A stretch of 64,000 bases of DNA from contig JASGHG010000001.1 of assembly GCA_047602425.1 (NCBI GenBank), positions 896,001 through 960,000 on the forward strand. Direction: 5' to 3'. Below are positions 23,151-33,123 of this stretch, one piece after another. The first letter of the stretch is position 1. Every line of letters starts with the position of its first letter. The notes under the pieces were generated by a model that did not search any database, had not been told where the DNA came from, and worked only from the letters and a program-made list of their open reading frames with translations. Source of the stretch: Nibricoccus sp. (GTDB lineage Bacteria; Verrucomicrobiota; Verrucomicrobiia; Opitutales; Opitutaceae). Both the position numbers and the translations under genes were made by a program.

Positions 23151-24473
23151 TTACCCCGCCAACGCATCCAATGGACCTGTCCCGAGCGCGTCGAGCGGGC
23201 TCCGCACCCCCAGCCCCGGCTTTTGCATGACGTGTGTATAGATCTGCGTCGTCTCCACACTCTCGTGGCCCAGCAATTCTTGTACCGTGCGTATATCCGC
23301 GCCGCCCTCCAATAAATGCGTTGCAAAGGAATGTCGCAGCACATGCGGCGTCACCCGCTTGTCGATACCGGCACGTTGCGCCGCCAGCCGGATGGCATTC
23401 TGGAAAGTCCCATCCAGCACATGATGCCTTTTACGCAAGCCGCTCACCGGATCGGACATCGTTTCACGCGAGGGGAACAGCCACTGCCATTTCCAATCTT
23501 CACCTGCACGAGGATATTTCCTATCCAGCCCTTCGGGTAACCATACGCCCGGCAAATTGTTTTTCCTATCCTCCGCATGGAGCACCCGTAATCGAGCCAA
23601 GTGCTCGCGCAACTTGGCCTGTAGCGACTCCGGCAAAACCGTCAGCCGGTCTTTTTTTCCTTTGCCTGCATAAATCTGCAACTGGCCGCGTTCCAGATCC
23701 AAATGGTGCACACGCAGTCGCAACAGCTCCATAAGGCGCAAACCGCCGCCATAAGCTAATTCAGCCATCAAGCGCGTCGTCCCATTCAATTGCTCGAATA
23801 ACTTCAGACACTCTGCCTTCGACAACACCGTCGGAACTTTTTGCTTAGCTCGCGCCCGTCGAAAATCGAACTGCCCCAAATCGCGTTTTAATGCCTCTTG
23901 GATAAAAAACACCAAAGCGTTCAATGCCTGTTTTTGCGATGATGGGCTGGCCCGCTGCTCCACGGCCATCTTCGAAAGAAAAGCTGCCACATCGTCCCCA
24001 ACCGCAGCATAAGGCGACTTCGGTTTCATATGCTCAGCAAACAAACCAGCCCAACGCCGGTACGTCTGCTCCGTCCGCCACAAAAACCCTTTGCGCCTGA
24101 TCGCCGTGATCAAATCGCGCTCCCAATCCGCACCGCCCAGATCTTCCGCAGCCTTGGGCGCCTGCTCCTCCAACGGACGCTTCGCCCTGACCACCCGCGA
24201 CTCCTGCCCTCGTTTGAAAAACCATCTCAAACCTGCACGCAGGTCCTCCTCACGTCTTCCGGCTTGCAACTCCCGCTGCTGAATATACTCCTTGGCCAGC
24301 AAAATAGAAGCAGCAGCCTGGCGGGTTCGGCAAAAACCCAAGAAACCCATAATCGCCCGCTTGTAGGCAGCTTTGGTTTGCGCATCCAGTCCCTCTTCAA
24401 CCAGTACCGAGCCCCATTGCGGAAACGAAACAACCACCTCGTCGCGCCAAAAAGTCTCTCCTTGTAAAGCCAT
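23151..24473 (-). CDS. intI: Integron integrase (tyrosine recombinase)
   Basis: [18 protein letters not shown], integron-specific insert [43 protein letters not shown]. Confidence 0.97.
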
Positions 24474-25024: not shown

Positions 25025-25408
25025 ATGCCAAAGGTCGCTCGTTTTTCCGCTCGAGACTTCGGTGCATACGAAGATCACGCGCTTGTTGTCGGCTTTGCAC
25101 GCGACCAGAGTGATGAGGAAAGCGACGATGCATTGGTGCTTCAGCGCGCAAAAGAAACGGAAGAAGACTCGGGGATCTACGCCGAGATTCCACCTCAGCG
25201 ATTTGTTACCTTCGGCGGAGTGAAAGAAGCGCGATTAGCCCGCGATAGTTTTTCGGTAACTTTTGAGCCAGAAGCGACGGCTGAGCTTGATGGTATCGCT
25301 GCGATGCAGATTTCATTCTCGATGTCAGATGAAGATTTCAGCCAGATTCGGCAGATGCTTAGTCGTATATTTCGAGATCATGCGGGGTTCAAAATACAAA
25401 ACGGCTAA
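25025..25408 (+). CDS. Cassette 2: Imm10-like immunity protein
   Basis: LVVGFA..LVLQR..IYAEI..FGGVKEARL..ISFSMSDEDF..LSRIF pattern recalls Imm10 (by eye). Confidence 0.65.
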   Translation: MPKVARFSARDFGAYEDHALVVGFARDQSDEESDDALVLQRAKETEEDSGIYAEIPPQRFVTFGGVKEARLARDSFSVTFEPEATAELDGIAAMQISFSMSDEDFSQIRQMLSRIFRDHAGFKIQNG

Positions 25409-26539: not shown

Positions 26540-26724
26540 AGAAGCCCAACCAGCCGCTCCCCTTTAGGTAAAATCAAGGGGTAAGTTTGATTTTGCCGTC
26601 AGGGGGGGGAGGGGCGAGTCCGAGAATGGGCCTCCAGCTCGTCGGAGGACGAGCCCCGGGGGGGGTAGGATGTAGCAGGTGGTTTTGGTTACATGAGATG
26701 GATATGGTTTTGGCGCTTTAACCA

Positions 26725-26890
26725 GGAGCCCGGTCCTCCGCGACGATCCCCATGAGTTGGTCCAGCTTTTGCGGGCTGGCCCGGACGATACTTAAAGGGC
26801 GGTAAGACCGGGAGGCCCGCCGTCGGGGCTTTAAAACATACAGTTGAGCATCAGCGAGGCTGTGCGGAACGGCTGGTGGCCCTCAAGCGG
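26725..26890 (-). ncRNA. Predicted bridge/seek RNA (target-binding and donor-binding loops)
   Basis: Two stem/internal-loop/hairpin units whose loop strands match the attC target flanks and the IS circle junction; transcript ends unknown. Confidence 0.75.
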
Positions 26891-26946
26891 CGGGTTTCCC
26901 GGAAAAGCAAAAGTTAATGTCGGCTAAAATAGATCAAGGAAGTGGT

Positions 26947-28212
26947 TTAGGCGGCGGAGCGGAAAACGCGCTTCGGGTCGAAGGGTTGGGGCGAGCGTTC
27001 CAGGCCGTGGAGCAGTTTGAGGAACTTGCGGGCGACCGCGGTCATGGCTTTGCCGCCGCACATGCCGGTGTCGCGTTTGGCGTGGTAGTATTGCCCGTAG
27101 AGTTGTCCGTGCACGACGCGTTTGAGGACGGCTTGGGCGAGGACGTGGCGCAGGCGGGCGCGGCCGCGTTTGGCTTGGCGGAGTTGGCCTTGCATGGTGC
27201 CGCTTTGGCGGGGCCGCAGGTTGAGCCCGCCGTAGCGCCAGAGTTGGCGCACGTGGGCAAAGTCCCGGAGCGGTCCGGTCTCGGCGAGGACACGGGCGAG
27301 CATGAAGGGGCTGATCAGGTCGGGATGGGCTTGCAGGCGGGTGGCGCCGCGGGCGCGCAGGCGTTCGACCAGGGCGATCATTTGCTGGCGGGTGTTGGTT
27401 CGGCGGGTGCGCAGCACGGTGAGTTCGGCAAAGAGGGCGCGCAGGTCCTCGGCGAGCAGGGCCAGCCAGTCGGGGTCGGAGTCGATCAGGGCGCAGCGCT
27501 GGGCGTCGGCGAAGAGTCGCTGGATGGTCTTTGGGCCAACGTGGTGGTTGCGCAGTTTGGCGGTGCAGCGTTCCAGGCCGTCGGCGAGGATCGCGGCGGC
27601 GTTCAGGCCGTAGAGTGCGATCGTGGCTTGGGCGGCGCGGCCTTCGAAGAGCCAGTCGTTTTTAAAGCTCAATTCGGGGAAGAGCGAGAGGAGCAGTTTA
27701 TGAATCCTGTTTTTACAGCGGGTGGAGTCGCGTTCGAGCCGGTCGTAGCGGGCGTTGAGTTCGCGCAGGAGCAGCCACTCGCCTTGGAGGGGACGATCGG
27801 TCAGGGTTTTGTTCCATTTGGCCAATAGTAAAATCGTGCGGGGATCTTTGATGTCGCTTTTGCCGGTATCGTTGTTCTCGACCACTTGCATCTGGTGGAC
27901 GGCTTCGCCGTTGACCAAGGCGGTGGCGCAGCCGAGTTGGCGGGCCGCGCGCAGCAGGCGCCGTTCGTATCCGCCGGTGGGTTCGCAGAGGATGCGCACG
28001 CCGCCAAGGCCGTGCTGGCGGGCGTGGGTGTTGAGTTGTTCCAGCCATGAGAGGATGGCCTCATTGCGATTGGCGATATGGCCTTGGTGCGCCTGGGCCC
28101 CGAGTTCACCGTACCAGTCCAGTGCTTTTTGCCCGACGTCGACGGCGATATCCCAGCGAGTTTCCGGTTGCCCGGAGTGCGTTCTGCCATTAAGTGCTTT
28201 GTTCGTTATCAT
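26947..28212 (-). CDS. IS110-family transposase/recombinase
   Basis: DEDD RuvC-like motifs AVDVG, CEPTG, KSDIKD; C-terminal GLNLRPRQSG, AMTAVARK. Confidence 0.93.
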   Translation of the reverse strand: MITNKALNGRTHSGQPETRWDIAVDVGQKALDWYGELGAQAHQGHIANRNEAILSWLEQLNTHARQHGLGGVRILCEPTGGYERRLLRAARQLGCATALVNGEAVHQMQVVENNDTGKSDIKDPRTILLLAKWNKTLTDRPLQGEWLLLRELNARYDRLERDSTRCKNRIHKLLLSLFPELSFKNDWLFEGRAAQATIALYGLNAAAILADGLERCTAKLRNHHVGPKTIQRLFADAQRCALIDSDPDWLALLAEDLRALFAELTVLRTRRTNTRQQMIALVERLRARGATRLQAHPDLISPFMLARVLAETGPLRDFAHVRQLWRYGGLNLRPRQSGTMQGQLRQAKRGRARLRHVLAQAVLKRVVHGQLYGQYYHAKRDTGMCGGKAMTAVARKFLKLLHGLERSPQPFDPKRVFRSAA

Positions 28213-28400
28213 TGTTAGATTGCGGCTCCGGCTAAGGAGTGCCGGTTACGTGCTTGTCACCGTCTAGTCCGTGCCGGGGCCGCCCCTTATGTTACCTCAT
28301 CCGCCTATTAGTAGCATACAGCGCAATGCCTCGACGGGGTTCGCTTTGAGTTTGGAGTCGCCAGCTCGGCATGGCTGACCAGAGATCGTTAGGCAAAAGT

Positions 28401-28706
28401 ATGGCCTTCCCGATTTACACGTTTCCCAGTCAGAAGTTCGAGGCGATTGAAGTGTGCCTTCGCACCGCTGGTTATAGCGTCGAGCAGTCTGGTCGGTCGT
28501 TACTGGTTCAGTCTGGTGCCGCACGAGCTCAGGTTTGCGACTATACGGAGGACGGTGATGCAGAAGTTCATTTCATCGTTCTTTTTCCGCACCGAGGTTT
28601 CTTTAGCTTTTTCGTGTTCTGGATCTCGGATGGCAGACTTGTCCGGAAGCTTTGGCGGCTCTTGAAGCAGCAGGGAGCTAAATATGTTGATCCTCGTAGA
28701 ATCTAA
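28401..28706 (+). CDS. Cassette 5: hypothetical protein
   Basis: ATG directly after attC4 core; stop directly before next R''. Confidence 0.75.
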   Translation: MAFPIYTFPSQKFEAIEVCLRTAGYSVEQSGRSLLVQSGAARAQVCDYTEDGDAEVHFIVLFPHRGFFSFFVFWISDGRLVRKLWRLLKQQGAKYVDPRRI

Positions 28707-28714
28707 AGAGCCGA

Positions 28715-30660
28715 ATCGGGTAGCCGGAGGTAATTAGCCTCCGGCCCCCACACCACCCGGCGTACGGGTCCGTACCGGGCGGTTCCGATCTGATTACGTC
28801 ACTTTCACCTTCGTCGCAGGAGGTTTATCCCTTGACGTTGGTTTGGCGGGTAATGATAGGCGATCCATTGGGTTTGCAGGTTGGGCACCCCTTGCTTCTG
28901 CAGCCATTCGTTGGTCAGCGCGGCTTGCACGATGCTGTTGCTGCTCATCCGCCAGCAGCCTTTGCGGCTGCGGCTGGCCAGATGCACTTCTTCTTTCTTC
29001 GCGCCAAGGCGCAGCAGGTTTCGCCGCCGTGTCGGCGCGCGTTTCCATTGTTTCCAGTAGCATTGCCGAACTCGGCGGCGTAGCCATTTATCCAGCTCGA
29101 GCACTTCGCGATACGTGTGGCTGATCCGGTAGTAGCCGATCCAGCCGTTGACGTAGCGGCTCAGGCTGCCGAGCCGGTGTTCCATCGACACGGCCCACGA
29201 GCGGCCGGTCAGTTCGCGCACTTTCGCGCGGAACTCTGCCTCGGCGGCTGGGCTCCAGCGGATTTGTTTCCGTTGGATCTGACAGCCGAGGAACGTGCAG
29301 TCGGCCAGCGGCGCGGCCCGGCTTTTGGCCGGGTTCACCGTGAGTTTTAACTTCTGTTCAACGAACTTCACGACATCGGCCATCACTTGTTCCGCTTTGG
29401 CGCGGCGCGGGACTACGATCAGGAAGTCGTCGGCGTAGCGCGCGAAGCGCAGGCGGCGCCGTTCCAGTTCACGGTCCAGCGGGGTGAGCATGATGTTGGC
29501 GAGCAGGGGCGACAAGGGTCCGCCTTGCGGCACGCCTTTGGTTGTTGGTTCTCGCTTTCCGTTCGGCAACACCACCCCGGCGCGCAGGTAGCGGCCGATC
29601 AGGCGCAGGACGTCCTTGTCCTTTACCTTCGCGGCCACGCGCGCCATAAGCAGGTCGTGGTCGACGTGATCGAAGAAGCTTTTCAGGTCGCAATCGACGG
29701 CGTGGGTGTTACCCTGTGCCGCGGCGTCCCGGATCGAGCGCAGCGCTTGATGGGCGTTGCGTCCGGTTCGGTAGGCGTGACTGTTTTCGCTGAACGTTTC
29801 CTCGAACACCCCGCTCAACTCTTGAGCGAGGGCTTGCTGGATGACCCGGTCCAGCACCGTGGGGATGCCCAGCGGGCGCTCGCCGCCGGTTTTCTTCGGG
29901 ATCGCCACCCGTCGCACGGGCGAGGGGCGGTAGGTCCCGTTCTGCAGTTTGGTGCGTACTTTTGTCCAGTGGGTTCGGATGAACGCGGGGAAGGCCGCGA
30001 TCGACATGGCGTCGATCCCGGGCGCTCCGCCGTTTTGCCGAACCTGCCGCCAGGCGGCATTGATGTTCGCCGGACTCAAGACACGTTCCCATTGTTCGCT
30101 ATGACTGCGGTCTTTCTCCGCCGCTAGGCTGCGCTCGTGGCCGGATTTGGCGTCCAGCGCCAGCTCCAGTTGGAAGCAGCCCGCGGTCTCCGCGGTCCCG
30201 ATCGGTTCGGTCCTTCGCGCGTGCGTGAGGCCTTCCGGGGCTTTCGGCGAGCCTTGTGGAAGGCGCTCGCTTACTCCCGGCTCGTTTCCCGCGCTACTAC
30301 GACTTCTGCTGACTGCTGCGCGTTCGCCGACACGGTTCCCCGTGGCGATGCGGGCTGGTTGCGTGTGCAACCGCCTGCTTGCCGCGCAGCTCTCCCTGGG
30401 TAAGGGACGTGACTTTCCCGACACAACCCCGGGCTTTACCTGTGACGCTGATACCCGGACTTCGTTCTGTGGTGCGCACTCGTCCGCGTCACCGGCCTTG
30501 TAACCCGTTCCTGTTCGTGGGCTCGTCGGTTTGACGCCAGCTTCTTTCCCACAGGGTCTCGCGACACCGCAGTTGCTTTTGTCTAATGCTTTTGGTTTAT
30601 CCATCGGTATCTTGCAGCGAGGACTTCCACCCCACCAGTTCACTCCCATGCCAGGCACAC
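28715..30660 (-). mobile_element. Group IIC-attC intron, complete
   Basis: Minus strand begins GTGTG and ends CTACCCGAT; domain V GAACCGCCCGGTACGGACCCGTACGCCGGGTGGTG with CGC triad; inserted in R'' of attC. Confidence 0.93.
28805..30160 (-). CDS. ltrA: Group II intron reverse transcriptase/maturase (no endonuclease domain); start uncertain
   Basis: GAPGID, RPLGIPTVLDR, DLKSFFD, GVPQGGPLSPLLAN, RYADD, FLG, X-domain GWIGYY..LDKWLRRR. Confidence 0.93.
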   Translation of the reverse strand, partial: ALDAKSGHERSLAAEKDRSHSEQWERVLSPANINAAWRQVRQNGGAPGIDAMSIAAFPAFIRTHWTKVRTKLQNGTYRPSPVRRVAIPKKTGGERPLGIPTVLDRVIQQALAQELSGVFEETFSENSHAYRTGRNAHQALRSIRDAAAQGNTHAVDCDLKSFFDHVDHDLLMARVAAKVKDKDVLRLIGRYLRAGVVLPNGKREPTTKGVPQGGPLSPLLANIMLTPLDRELERRRLRFARYADDFLIVVPRRAKAEQVMADVVKFVEQKLKLTVNPAKSRAAPLADCTFLGCQIQRKQIRWSPAAEAEFRAKVRELTGRSWAVSMEHRLGSLSRYVNGWIGYYRISHTYREVLELDKWLRRRVRQCYWKQWKRAPTRRRNLLRLGAKKEEVHLASRSRKGCWRMSSNSIVQAALTNEWLQKQGVPNLQTQWIAYHYPPNQRQGINLLRRR

Positions 30661-30760
30661 ACCAGGCGCTAGAGCACAACGCCTATGCTCGTCACGCCAG
30701 CTGCGTGGCAGCTGTCGCGCCGAGCACAGGCGTGGCTCACCTTTAACGTTCGGCAAAGAT

Positions 30761-31135
30761 ATGAAGAATATCGGCGTTAGCACGACGGCACTCTTTCTGG
30801 CCTTGGGCGCGCTAGTACTCTGCGTCGTGGCAGAGCCCTTTTATGCCGGTCTGTTGGCAGTGCCCTTTGCGTTAGGCCCCCTTGTTTATTCTCTACAGAT
30901 TGCTTTGCGATGGAAAGAAGCCCGGAAGGTACAAAGAGTGATCGCACTGAGCACATCCCTTTACGCTGCTTGGTTTCTTTTCATCTATCTCGACGGGTTC
31001 TATTGGAATCCCGATGCTCAAAGCGGCATTCTTTTCTTCGTTATCGGGATCTGGTCTTTGCCTGTCATGATTCCTTTCTGGATAGCGGCTCACCGTATAG
31101 GTAAGAAATCTACTTCTAAAGAAATCAAAGCATGA
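30761..31135 (+). CDS. Cassette 6: membrane protein (about 4 TM)
   Basis: Hydrophobic ORF with DAQ motif between attC5 and attC6. Confidence 0.8.
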   Translation: MKNIGVSTTALFLALGALVLCVVAEPFYAGLLAVPFALGPLVYSLQIALRWKEARKVQRVIALSTSLYAAWFLFIYLDGFYWNPDAQSGILFFVIGIWSLPVMIPFWIAAHRIGKKSTSKEIKA

Positions 31136-31139
31136 AATA

Positions 31140-31238
31140 GCCGAACCAGGCGCTAGAGCACAACGCCGATGTCCGTCACGTCAGCTGCGGGGCAGCTGTC
31201 GCGCCGGCCACAGGCGCGGCACACCTATAACGTTAGGG
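31140..31238 (+). other. attC site 6
   Basis: GCCGAAC...GTTAGGG. Confidence 0.9.
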
Positions 31239-32297: not shown

Positions 32298-32690
32298 ATG
32301 ACGAATCTACCCGAAGGTTGGACTGACGATATGAGGATACCGATTGCGCCCGGTGCGCAGTCCGAGGAACTCGTCGATATTGTTTTTGAAGCTATGCTCG
32401 CATTCGAGGTTTCAGATGACGTCTGCAGAAAATTGCAGACGCGATTTGGTCTGTCGCTAGATGACGCGATGTTAGCTCTAGATCGAGTTCCTGGTGGTGT
32501 AGTTCGCGCAATCACTGCGAATCCAGCCAATTGCCCGGACAAAGAAAAAGATCCGCTTGCGTTCATTGCCTACAGCCGGGTTTGGGCGACATTGCCGAGA
32601 CGACATCTCTTTTCGAGGCAGAAGAAGCCGGGTGGAAAGTGGCTTAAGTGGTTTGAAGAAAGGCGAACGATCGAAAATCAGAAGGGCTAA
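32298..32690 (+). CDS. Cassette 9: hypothetical protein
   Basis: ORF after attC8 ending in GGCTAA (R'' remnant). Confidence 0.78.
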   Translation: MTNLPEGWTDDMRIPIAPGAQSEELVDIVFEAMLAFEVSDDVCRKLQTRFGLSLDDAMLALDRVPGGVVRAITANPANCPDKEKDPLAFIAYSRVWATLPRRHLFSRQKKPGGKWLKWFEERRTIENQKG

Positions 32691-33030
32691 TCGGGTAGCC
32701 GGAGGTAACTAGCCTCCGGCCCCCACACCACCCGGAGTACGGGTCCGTACCGGGCGGTTCCGATCTGATTACGTCGCTTTCGCTTTCGTCGCAGATTCTT
32801 GTCTCTGCAATGTTGGTTTAGGCGGGTAATGATAGGCGATCCATTGAGCCTGCAGATTTGGCATGCCTTGTTTTTGCTCGGCTCACGGCCCGTTGCACGG
32901 GCACCCGTTCGCCTCGCCCTTCGCGTCGCTCCGGGCCACGCCATGCGGCGTGACCATCTCCGCGCTTCGTCCAGCCATTCGTTGGTTAGCGCGGCTTGCA
33001 CGATGCTGTTGCTGTTCATCCGCCAGAGCC
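32690..33030 (-). pseudogene. 5'-truncated group IIC intron fragment (domains V/VI plus RT C-terminal remnant) in attC9
   Basis: Closely similar to 28715-28960; homology stops near 33030; 95-bp insertion at 32876-32970. Confidence 0.88.
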
Positions 33031-33123
33031 ACTGTTATAGCGAGCGATGAAGCAGGTATATAGCAGGCCAAACAAAGCAGCTTTAGAGCATTTTTAAAAA
33101 TGTCATAGCCGCACAATCCGGCT

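Follow-up and report, generated by a model that had tools for sequence, protein, structure and literature searches.

The element and its integron setting

Within the window, by which we mean the whole 64,000-nucleotide stretch of Nibricoccus sp. DNA analysed here, an insertion sequence with an IS110-family transposase gene sits in an integron cassette array, in the L'' box of an attC site, and is oriented opposite to the cassette genes (Table 1). Non-coding sequence extends over 388 bp on the 3' side of the gene and over 105 bp on its 5' side. The first bases of the element are CCCC at 26559, the left flank reads ACCAGCCG-CT (26549-26558) and the right junction AGTAGC-AT-ACAG (28310-28321), all three as the original prediction for this DNA had described them.

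Table 1. Features of the element, its predicted RNA and the surrounding integron, in window coordinates
Feature	Position	Strand	Description
Integron integrase of the array carrying the element	23151..24473	-	TIGR02249, 372 bits (cut-off 265)
Left part of split attC	26544..26558	+	R'' GCCCAAC (26544-26550), then a 5-nt spacer and GCT, the first 3 nt of L''; 26557-26558 is the target 'core' CT
Whole insertion sequence	26559..28317	-	1,759 bp, without target duplication; ends fixed by 9 genome copies with differing flanks
Element right end	26559..26577	-	Right donor, CCTA motif, outward -35-like TTGATT (26572-26577)
Predicted bridge RNA, its target-binding loop ahead of the donor-binding loop	26729..26900	-	About 170 nt; covariance model match of 106 bits (window sequence near-identical to a training row)
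Right donor guide	26744..26751	-	GGGG + core AU + handshake guide CG; GGGGAT at 26746-26751
Left donor guide	26785..26792	-	Minus-strand AGTATCGT; AGUAUC-GU
Right target guide	26836..26843	-	CUGU + core AU + handshake guide GU; CTGTAT at 26838-26843
Left target guide	26868..26877	-	Minus-strand ACCAGCCGTT; reads ACCAGCCG-UU
IS110-family DEDD transposase/recombinase	26947..28212	-	421 aa; PF01548 and PF02371 above cut-off
Element left end	28304..28317	-	Donor 'core' AT (28316-28317), left donor, 4-bp TAGG subterminal motif
Right part of split attC	28318..28394	+	Rest of L'' (ACAGC), stem, L', R' GTTAGGC

In the transposase, residues D25, E77, D120, D123 and S337 are invariant or nearly so among the 72 homologs compared. 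The structural model (pLDDT 85.9) has IS621 as its best Foldseek match (E 3.4e-14, 17% identity). The NCBIfam equivalog NF033542 gives 111 bits, under its cut-off of 140, a shortfall that is due to divergence within the same fold.

The subterminal repeat measures 4 bp in the element and 3 to 9 bp in 25 related loci. The outward TTGATT of the right end could build a promoter at a circle junction: the match covers 8 of 12 positions here and 9 to 10 of 12 (TTGACT/TTGACA-17-CATACT) in 8 of 25 loci from a distant subgroup. A search for the circle joint in four DNA contig sets found none, and as these sets cover the element only partly, the result has no weight either way. Another outward promoter candidate, CTGCCA-17-TATCAT at 28184-28212, was rejected: close relatives do not keep the motif, and it is therefore not claimed. 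At the left end (28299-28317), a GCCTATT lies 5 bases before the new start of L'' and mimics the displaced R'' box GCCTAAC at 5 of 7 positions, without the AAC; the likeness may be a coincidence of the TAGG terminal motif, and the idea that a functional attC is thereby left behind is not claimed.

The host genome contains nine transposase copies with 99.8 to 100% protein identity, and all nine lie at one identical attC position, with AAC-CAG(C/G)CG-CT on the left and AT-A(C/G)(A/T)G on the right. A census of empty sites, built as a search on the other half of attC, yielded 34 parsed sites; their core position is CT in 26 and AT in register in none, and the A at the junction therefore belongs to the element. 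Of the attC-family sites of the host, about a fifth (9 occupied, against 34 parsed as empty) are interrupted in the L'' box; cassettes should be frozen or fused as a result.

Two of the copies have an identical 398-bp downstream cassette in common. The arrays at window 28318-31200 and at G000:C1 ~293182-292290 share the element end, a cassette X (100%, 398 bp) and a cassette Y (97.8%), and differ upstream; the element copies of these two distant arrays agree at the adjoining end and differ elsewhere. This suggests homologous recombination or conversion between copies, which would reshuffle cassettes. Elements and attC clusters also occur at G000:C1 1490205, 4130327 and ~287100-302500, far from both integrase genes found (near 919-920 kb and 5,147 kb), and are isolated cassettes or integrase-less arrays.

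A conserved two-loop RNA downstream of the gene

Homologous loci were gathered by protein alignments (56 from metagenomes, 78 from genomes). A two-loop RNA 3' of the gene is kept across relatives with 31 to 100% identity: an iterative profile matches a region of ~165 nt after the stop codon in 80 of the 109 loci with enough 3' sequence, and a covariance model built from homologous elements matches, wholly or in part, most of the marine subgroup that remained. For 45 chosen homologous RNAs, RNAalifold returns exactly two stem/internal loop/hairpin units with the guides in unpaired loops. The consensus has 40 pairs, 37 of which are changed on both sides among the 45 rows; paired cells amount to 92.2%, against 62.9% in shuffled and 31 to 44% in slid alignments, the structure being derived from this same alignment. 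Comparative folding therefore bears out the two-unit fold of the original prediction, whereas folding of the single sequence is weak (z -1.81 for 388 nt and z -0.51 for 186 nt), and unit 2 is not cleanly formed in the long fold.

That the matches between loops and flanks arose by chance in a GC-rich non-coding end could be argued from this single-sequence folding, which barely beats shuffles, and from the shortness of the guides. However, the covariation of the structure and four independent guide tests (below) leave this explanation hardly credible, unless the alignment is at fault.

A further GC-rich hairpin lies 3' of the bridge RNA (window ~26600-26665, minus strand); it is kept in the close relatives L007-L011, takes another form in L014/L015, and is a possible terminator or processing signal. 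One element copy (G000:C1 292291-289241, minus strand) is split within the left donor guide by an IS3-like element of ~1.3 kb, its family assigned by eye from reading frames; this insertion should disable the RNA of that copy, with the transposase left intact. At L071:2310-2800, the 3' end of the transposase gene and the RNA region are tandemly repeated beyond the right end.

Targets and distribution of the clade

Among 115 loci examined, 42 were without a right end and 9 were duplicates, leaving 64 distinct right ends. The GTT of the attC R'' box is found 11 to 14 bases past the anchor in 55 of these, against a background of 5%. By our reading, six of the remaining nine look like wrong anchors and three (L050, L090 and L096) are real exceptions. 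L096 lies at a GAC site, and its guides match 8 of 9 and 4 of 4 positions when G:T is allowed (our reading again). L050 is at an AAT site and L090 is four bases off; these three loci are candidates for natural retargeting or off-target insertion.

Sites were rebuilt for the 24 loci with both ends. An energy-based hairpin test, in which 9 of 24 beat shuffles and two bona fide sites failed, was replaced by a test of box complementarity: the rebuilt sites have L and R boxes that complement each other at the spacing of attC (score 185, compared with 95+/-9), individually at p<0.05 in 18 of 24, and the cut falls between positions 3 and 4 of L''. In all 18 well-scoring sites, it is placed just ahead of the extrahelical L'' base.

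A profile search returned 331 cluster representatives at E<=1e-30. Hosts in the tree belong to the Verrucomicrobiota, Thermodesulfobacteriota, Myxococcota, Nitrospirota, Bacteroidota, Fidelibacterota, Latescibacterota and Pseudomonadota, with one archaeal bin in addition. In the phylum of the element's own host, 3 of 401 genomes carry the lineage, the host genome included. A single-protein search of genome contigs and an alignment search of viral contigs gave no matches.

Guides covary with the flanking DNA

The four loop strands are found where the original prediction had placed them. The complement of the top strand comes before the match to the bottom strand, and the first guide pairs with the gene-sense strand. 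The left donor guide has one mismatch to the element's own end and is perfect in the L014/L072 group. The CC that had been noted after both left guides describes this element, but is not conserved by its relatives.

An RNA was parsed in 78 loci; right ends were located in 53 of these and left ends in 35, by element-internal motifs only, and the one-base register was picked with the guide pair opposite to the one under test. With one row per distinct RNA, flank bases match positions 3-8 of the left target guide in 179 of 252 cases (null 114+/-7), the right target guide in 67 of 112 (null 45+/-4), the right donor guide in 133 of 168 (null 73+/-6) and the left donor guide in 131 of 140 (null 113+/-3), with 0/20,000 permutations in each test. 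Related elements in these tests are not independent. After clustering at 80% RNA identity, the counts are 0 (left target), 5 (right target), 0 (right donor) and 8 (left donor) of 20,000 permutations; at 70%, the test of the right target guide is weaker (356/20,000, 7 clusters). A 99%-identical element in run X1 carries G>C at 26872, so that its left guide now fits the commoner attC variant (one contig, depth 4). The original prediction held that homologs keeping the same loops at other targets would speak against guidance; relatives at other sequences carry other loops.

Inside the host genome, the right target guide is matched by 7 of 9 occupied sites and by 4 of 34 empty ones (Fisher p 3e-4), or by 6 of 8 occupied sites if the two linked copies are counted once (p 9e-4). 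For the left target guide, the figures are 4 of 9 and 2 of 34 (p 0.012).

The question arises as to whether the folded single-stranded attC hairpin, or a protein reading the AAC box, mainly steers the element, the RNA loops serving for fine-tuning or excision. Almost the entire clade, in phylum after phylum, keeps to attC, even though its guides would be free to drift towards any target; many guide mismatches are tolerated, the guide includes the invariant AC, and the position of the cut relative to the extrahelical base would suit such a mechanism. On the other hand, the guide positions that vary do so together with the flanks, one genome shows a preference for guide-matching attC sites over equally folded ones, and L096 occupies a non-AAC site that its own guides match. 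Fidelity to attC can also reflect selection for a safe, repeated and mobile site. We therefore consider this scenario unlikely. Since the left guide matches just 71% at positions 3-8, protein or DNA structure may nevertheless supply part of the specificity. The insertion of all nine copies in attC, the covariation of guides with flanks and the preference for guide-matching sites together support an RNA-guided recombinase aimed at attC, as the original prediction had proposed from the letters of the window.

Handshake bases and unlike core dinucleotides

For IS621, the published account is that the top strands, once cut 3' of the core, change places, and that only then do the two bases following each right guide pair with the partner DNA (PMC11208158). 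In the present element, CUGU-AU is followed by G, which fits donor position 7 and not the target, and the bases after GGGG-AU are CG, which fit target positions 7 and 6 and not the donor. Both ends are available for 22 elements, and in these the first base of the handshake guides agrees with the partner DNA in 18/22 and 15/22 cases, and with the cognate DNA in 2/22 and 2/22 (0/20,000 permutations for both loops, one row per RNA). The second handshake base shows no pattern (post-exchange 5/22 and 6/22, pre-exchange 0/22 and 7/22). Handshake guides that pair at position 7 with the partner DNA, a trait of the IS110 family, are present; missing from the original prediction, they also covary.

A core dinucleotide identical in target and donor, as in the IS621 model, is not the rule among these 22 elements: the junction dinucleotides are identical in two, with the second base shared in 19 and the first in 4. 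Junctions are CT on the left and AT on the right in all nine genome copies, and L020 and L014 have CC targets. The NT/AT core read from this element at the outset is right, and general in the clade. The core of the right target guide equals the element-side dinucleotide in 20/22 elements and the target dinucleotide in 2/22, so that every product looks like a top-strand outcome.

This asymmetry fits top-strand insertion and single-strand excision, but also an exchange of both strands in which the bottom one stays unligated and is mended from the top one; the genomic pattern alone cannot separate top-strand-only insertion from the latter. Published descriptions exist of top-strand excision and insertion for CazIS110-1, which fits the asymmetry (10.1101/2025.10.25.684509), of single-strand excision for IS621 (10.64898/2026.08.31.748434), and of two-strand exchange with repair of an unligated bottom strand from the top (PMC13626964). 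A natural core mismatch provides a built-in strand marker for the question of one-strand versus two-strand insertion. By our reading, the ISKpn4 of L149 also has unlike junction dinucleotides, so the asymmetry is not unique to the clade; that of ISKpn4 agrees with the 'no additional bases' rule given for IS1111 (PMC11187229).

Current bridge designs are described as needing matching donor and target cores (10.1101/2025.05.14.653916). In genome engineering, this rule would be relaxed by a family that naturally joins an AT, CT or GT donor to targets with CT, GT, TT or CC.

Relation to known elements

Guide RNAs (seekRNA) aimed at attC have been demonstrated for ISKpn4 and ISPst6 (PMC11187229), and RNA-guided targeting of attC is therefore already known. 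The element could be a diverged member of this IS1111-attC group (ISKpn4, ISPa21, ISPst6, ISPa25), with which it shares insertion near the 5' (R''/L'') end of attC, a gene antisense to the cassettes, the lack of a duplication, a long 3' non-coding region with the guide RNA, and the guide order. However, proteins of the group have 347 aa and an EACG motif, against 421 aa and EPTGGY here, and BLASTP of the transposase against ISKpn4, ISPa21 and the L151 element gave no match at E<=10; a transposase of 330 to 350 aa related over its full length and a subterminal repeat of 11 to 13 bp, both IS1111 traits, are absent. The repeat of ISKpn4 is a perfect 13 bp, against 4 bp here. ISKpn4 cuts 6 nt after AAC (L'' position 1) and the clade 8 nt after (L'' position 3), 2 bp apart; the lengths are 1.38 kb for an IS1111-attC element and 1.76 kb here. 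The RNA covariance model of the clade finds nothing at E<=1 in 11 reference loci (L141-L151).

In the tree, ISKpn4, ISPa21 and a third attC element fall together with ISEc11 and IS4321, and the element's own 64-row clade is separate from them (SH-aLRT 100 for both); this is a quick tree with long branches and 10 reference proteins, in which the IS1111 branch has 6 rows. L137-L140 are an outgroup at 28% identity. In a published table of 1,054 clusters, explored by motif search and judged by eye, recognised attC elements share one IS1111-type cluster, and two different clusters that resemble the element's protein list no ISfinder member (PMC11208160). Neither the quick tree nor the cluster table supports monophyly with the transposases of ISPa21, ISPst6 and ISKpn4, and membership in the IS1111-attC group appears very improbable. 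The tree supports a lineage without a named member, as originally suspected; the nearest named plasmid element fetched, ISRel25, is 27% identical.

IS621 and ISCro4, as described in PMC11208160, PMC11208158 and PMC13626964, resemble the element in the DEDD + serine active site, the fold, the short subterminal motif, and two simple internal loops holding LTG/RTG and LDG/RDG with handshake guides beside the right guides. They differ by low identity (17%) and by about 100 extra residues in the element's variable region. Their RNA precedes the gene, whereas that of the element follows it, with the guide-sense strand antisense to the gene; and they target REP, whereas the element targets attC with a core not common to target and donor. 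Protein and ends of IS110 type, combined with RNA position and guide order of IS1111 type, make the element a mosaic. Of the 'IS110/IS1111' label first given to it, the second half is apt for the RNA, while the protein is of IS110 type. In the account of PMC11187229, the combination appears only as exceptions: IS110-group elements with a 3' non-coding region, which are similar in size class (395-455 aa) and in their short imperfect repeats.

A literature search (most subscription journals, ISfinder, TnPedia, figures and bioRxiv supplements lying outside its scope) gave no account of an IS110-type attC-targeting lineage or of a natural core mismatch; extensive private IS110 databases very probably include such sequences. 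In supplement 5 of PMC11208160, some targets of IS621-like orthologs are centred on GTCTAAC, like the R box of attC, and a further IS110 lineage may hit attC.

Proposed mechanism

The best explanation, which we hold with high confidence on the strength of the sequence comparisons, is that the element is a presumably active IS110-family member, of a lineage separate from the IS1111-attC group, steered into attC by a two-loop bridge RNA. For transcription, the circle and cleavage chemistry, the scheme borrows from work on IS621, ISEc11, ISKpn4 and CazIS110. The RNA, arising from the 3' non-coding end and probably co-transcribed from a circle-junction promoter, would be bound by the transposase. 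Its donor loop would read the joined ends of the element, and its target loop 8+4 bases around the R''/L'' half of attC, with the AC from the conserved AAC as the first of them. Cleavage of the 'top' strands (plus strand of the window) would take place 3' of the two core bases, and after their exchange the element would lie between positions 3 and 4 of L'', running against the cassette genes and without duplication. Pairing of the handshake bases and of the first core base improves with the exchange, which would drive insertion. The other strand would be completed from the exchanged strand by replication or repair, with the target dinucleotide kept at one junction and that of the element at the other; core identity would thus be unneeded.

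Targeting of attC seems to be convergent with the IS1111-attC group and found independently. It would be a second, apparently independent solution to RNA-guided integron parasitism, in environmental phyla, and hence a natural setting in which to test how guides follow a repeat that varies. A more encompassing reading, to which we give about even credence, joins several propositions: an unnamed multi-phylum IS110-type lineage evolved attC targeting independently of the IS1111-attC group; it recombines without core homology, the 'core' acting as extra handshake positions and one strand dictating the outcome; its members amount to a natural library of guides fitted to the attC families of their hosts; and repeated copies let arrays reshuffle by homologous recombination without integrase.

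Other features of the array

The array also harbours another type of RNA-based parasite. A group II intron with reverse transcriptase (window ~28711-30661, minus strand; frame 28805-30679, Rfam D1-D4 matches) occupies the R'' box of the attC that comes directly behind the cassette downstream of the element. Group IIC-attC introns (PMC3001079), the kind that occupies this neighbouring attC, share the attC end and the orientation of the element, but retrohome by ribozyme and reverse transcriptase and insert at R'', about 8 bp from the element's site. In the cassette copy at G000 ~292790, the intron's attC site is empty. An Rfam scan of the window detected group II intron domains and no other RNA family. 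A second intron end, truncated, lies at ~32690-33050. Pfam assigned no family to 8 other nearby ORFs, and the cassette protein at 25035-25408 (plus strand) matches the Imm10 immunity-protein family just over the cut-off.
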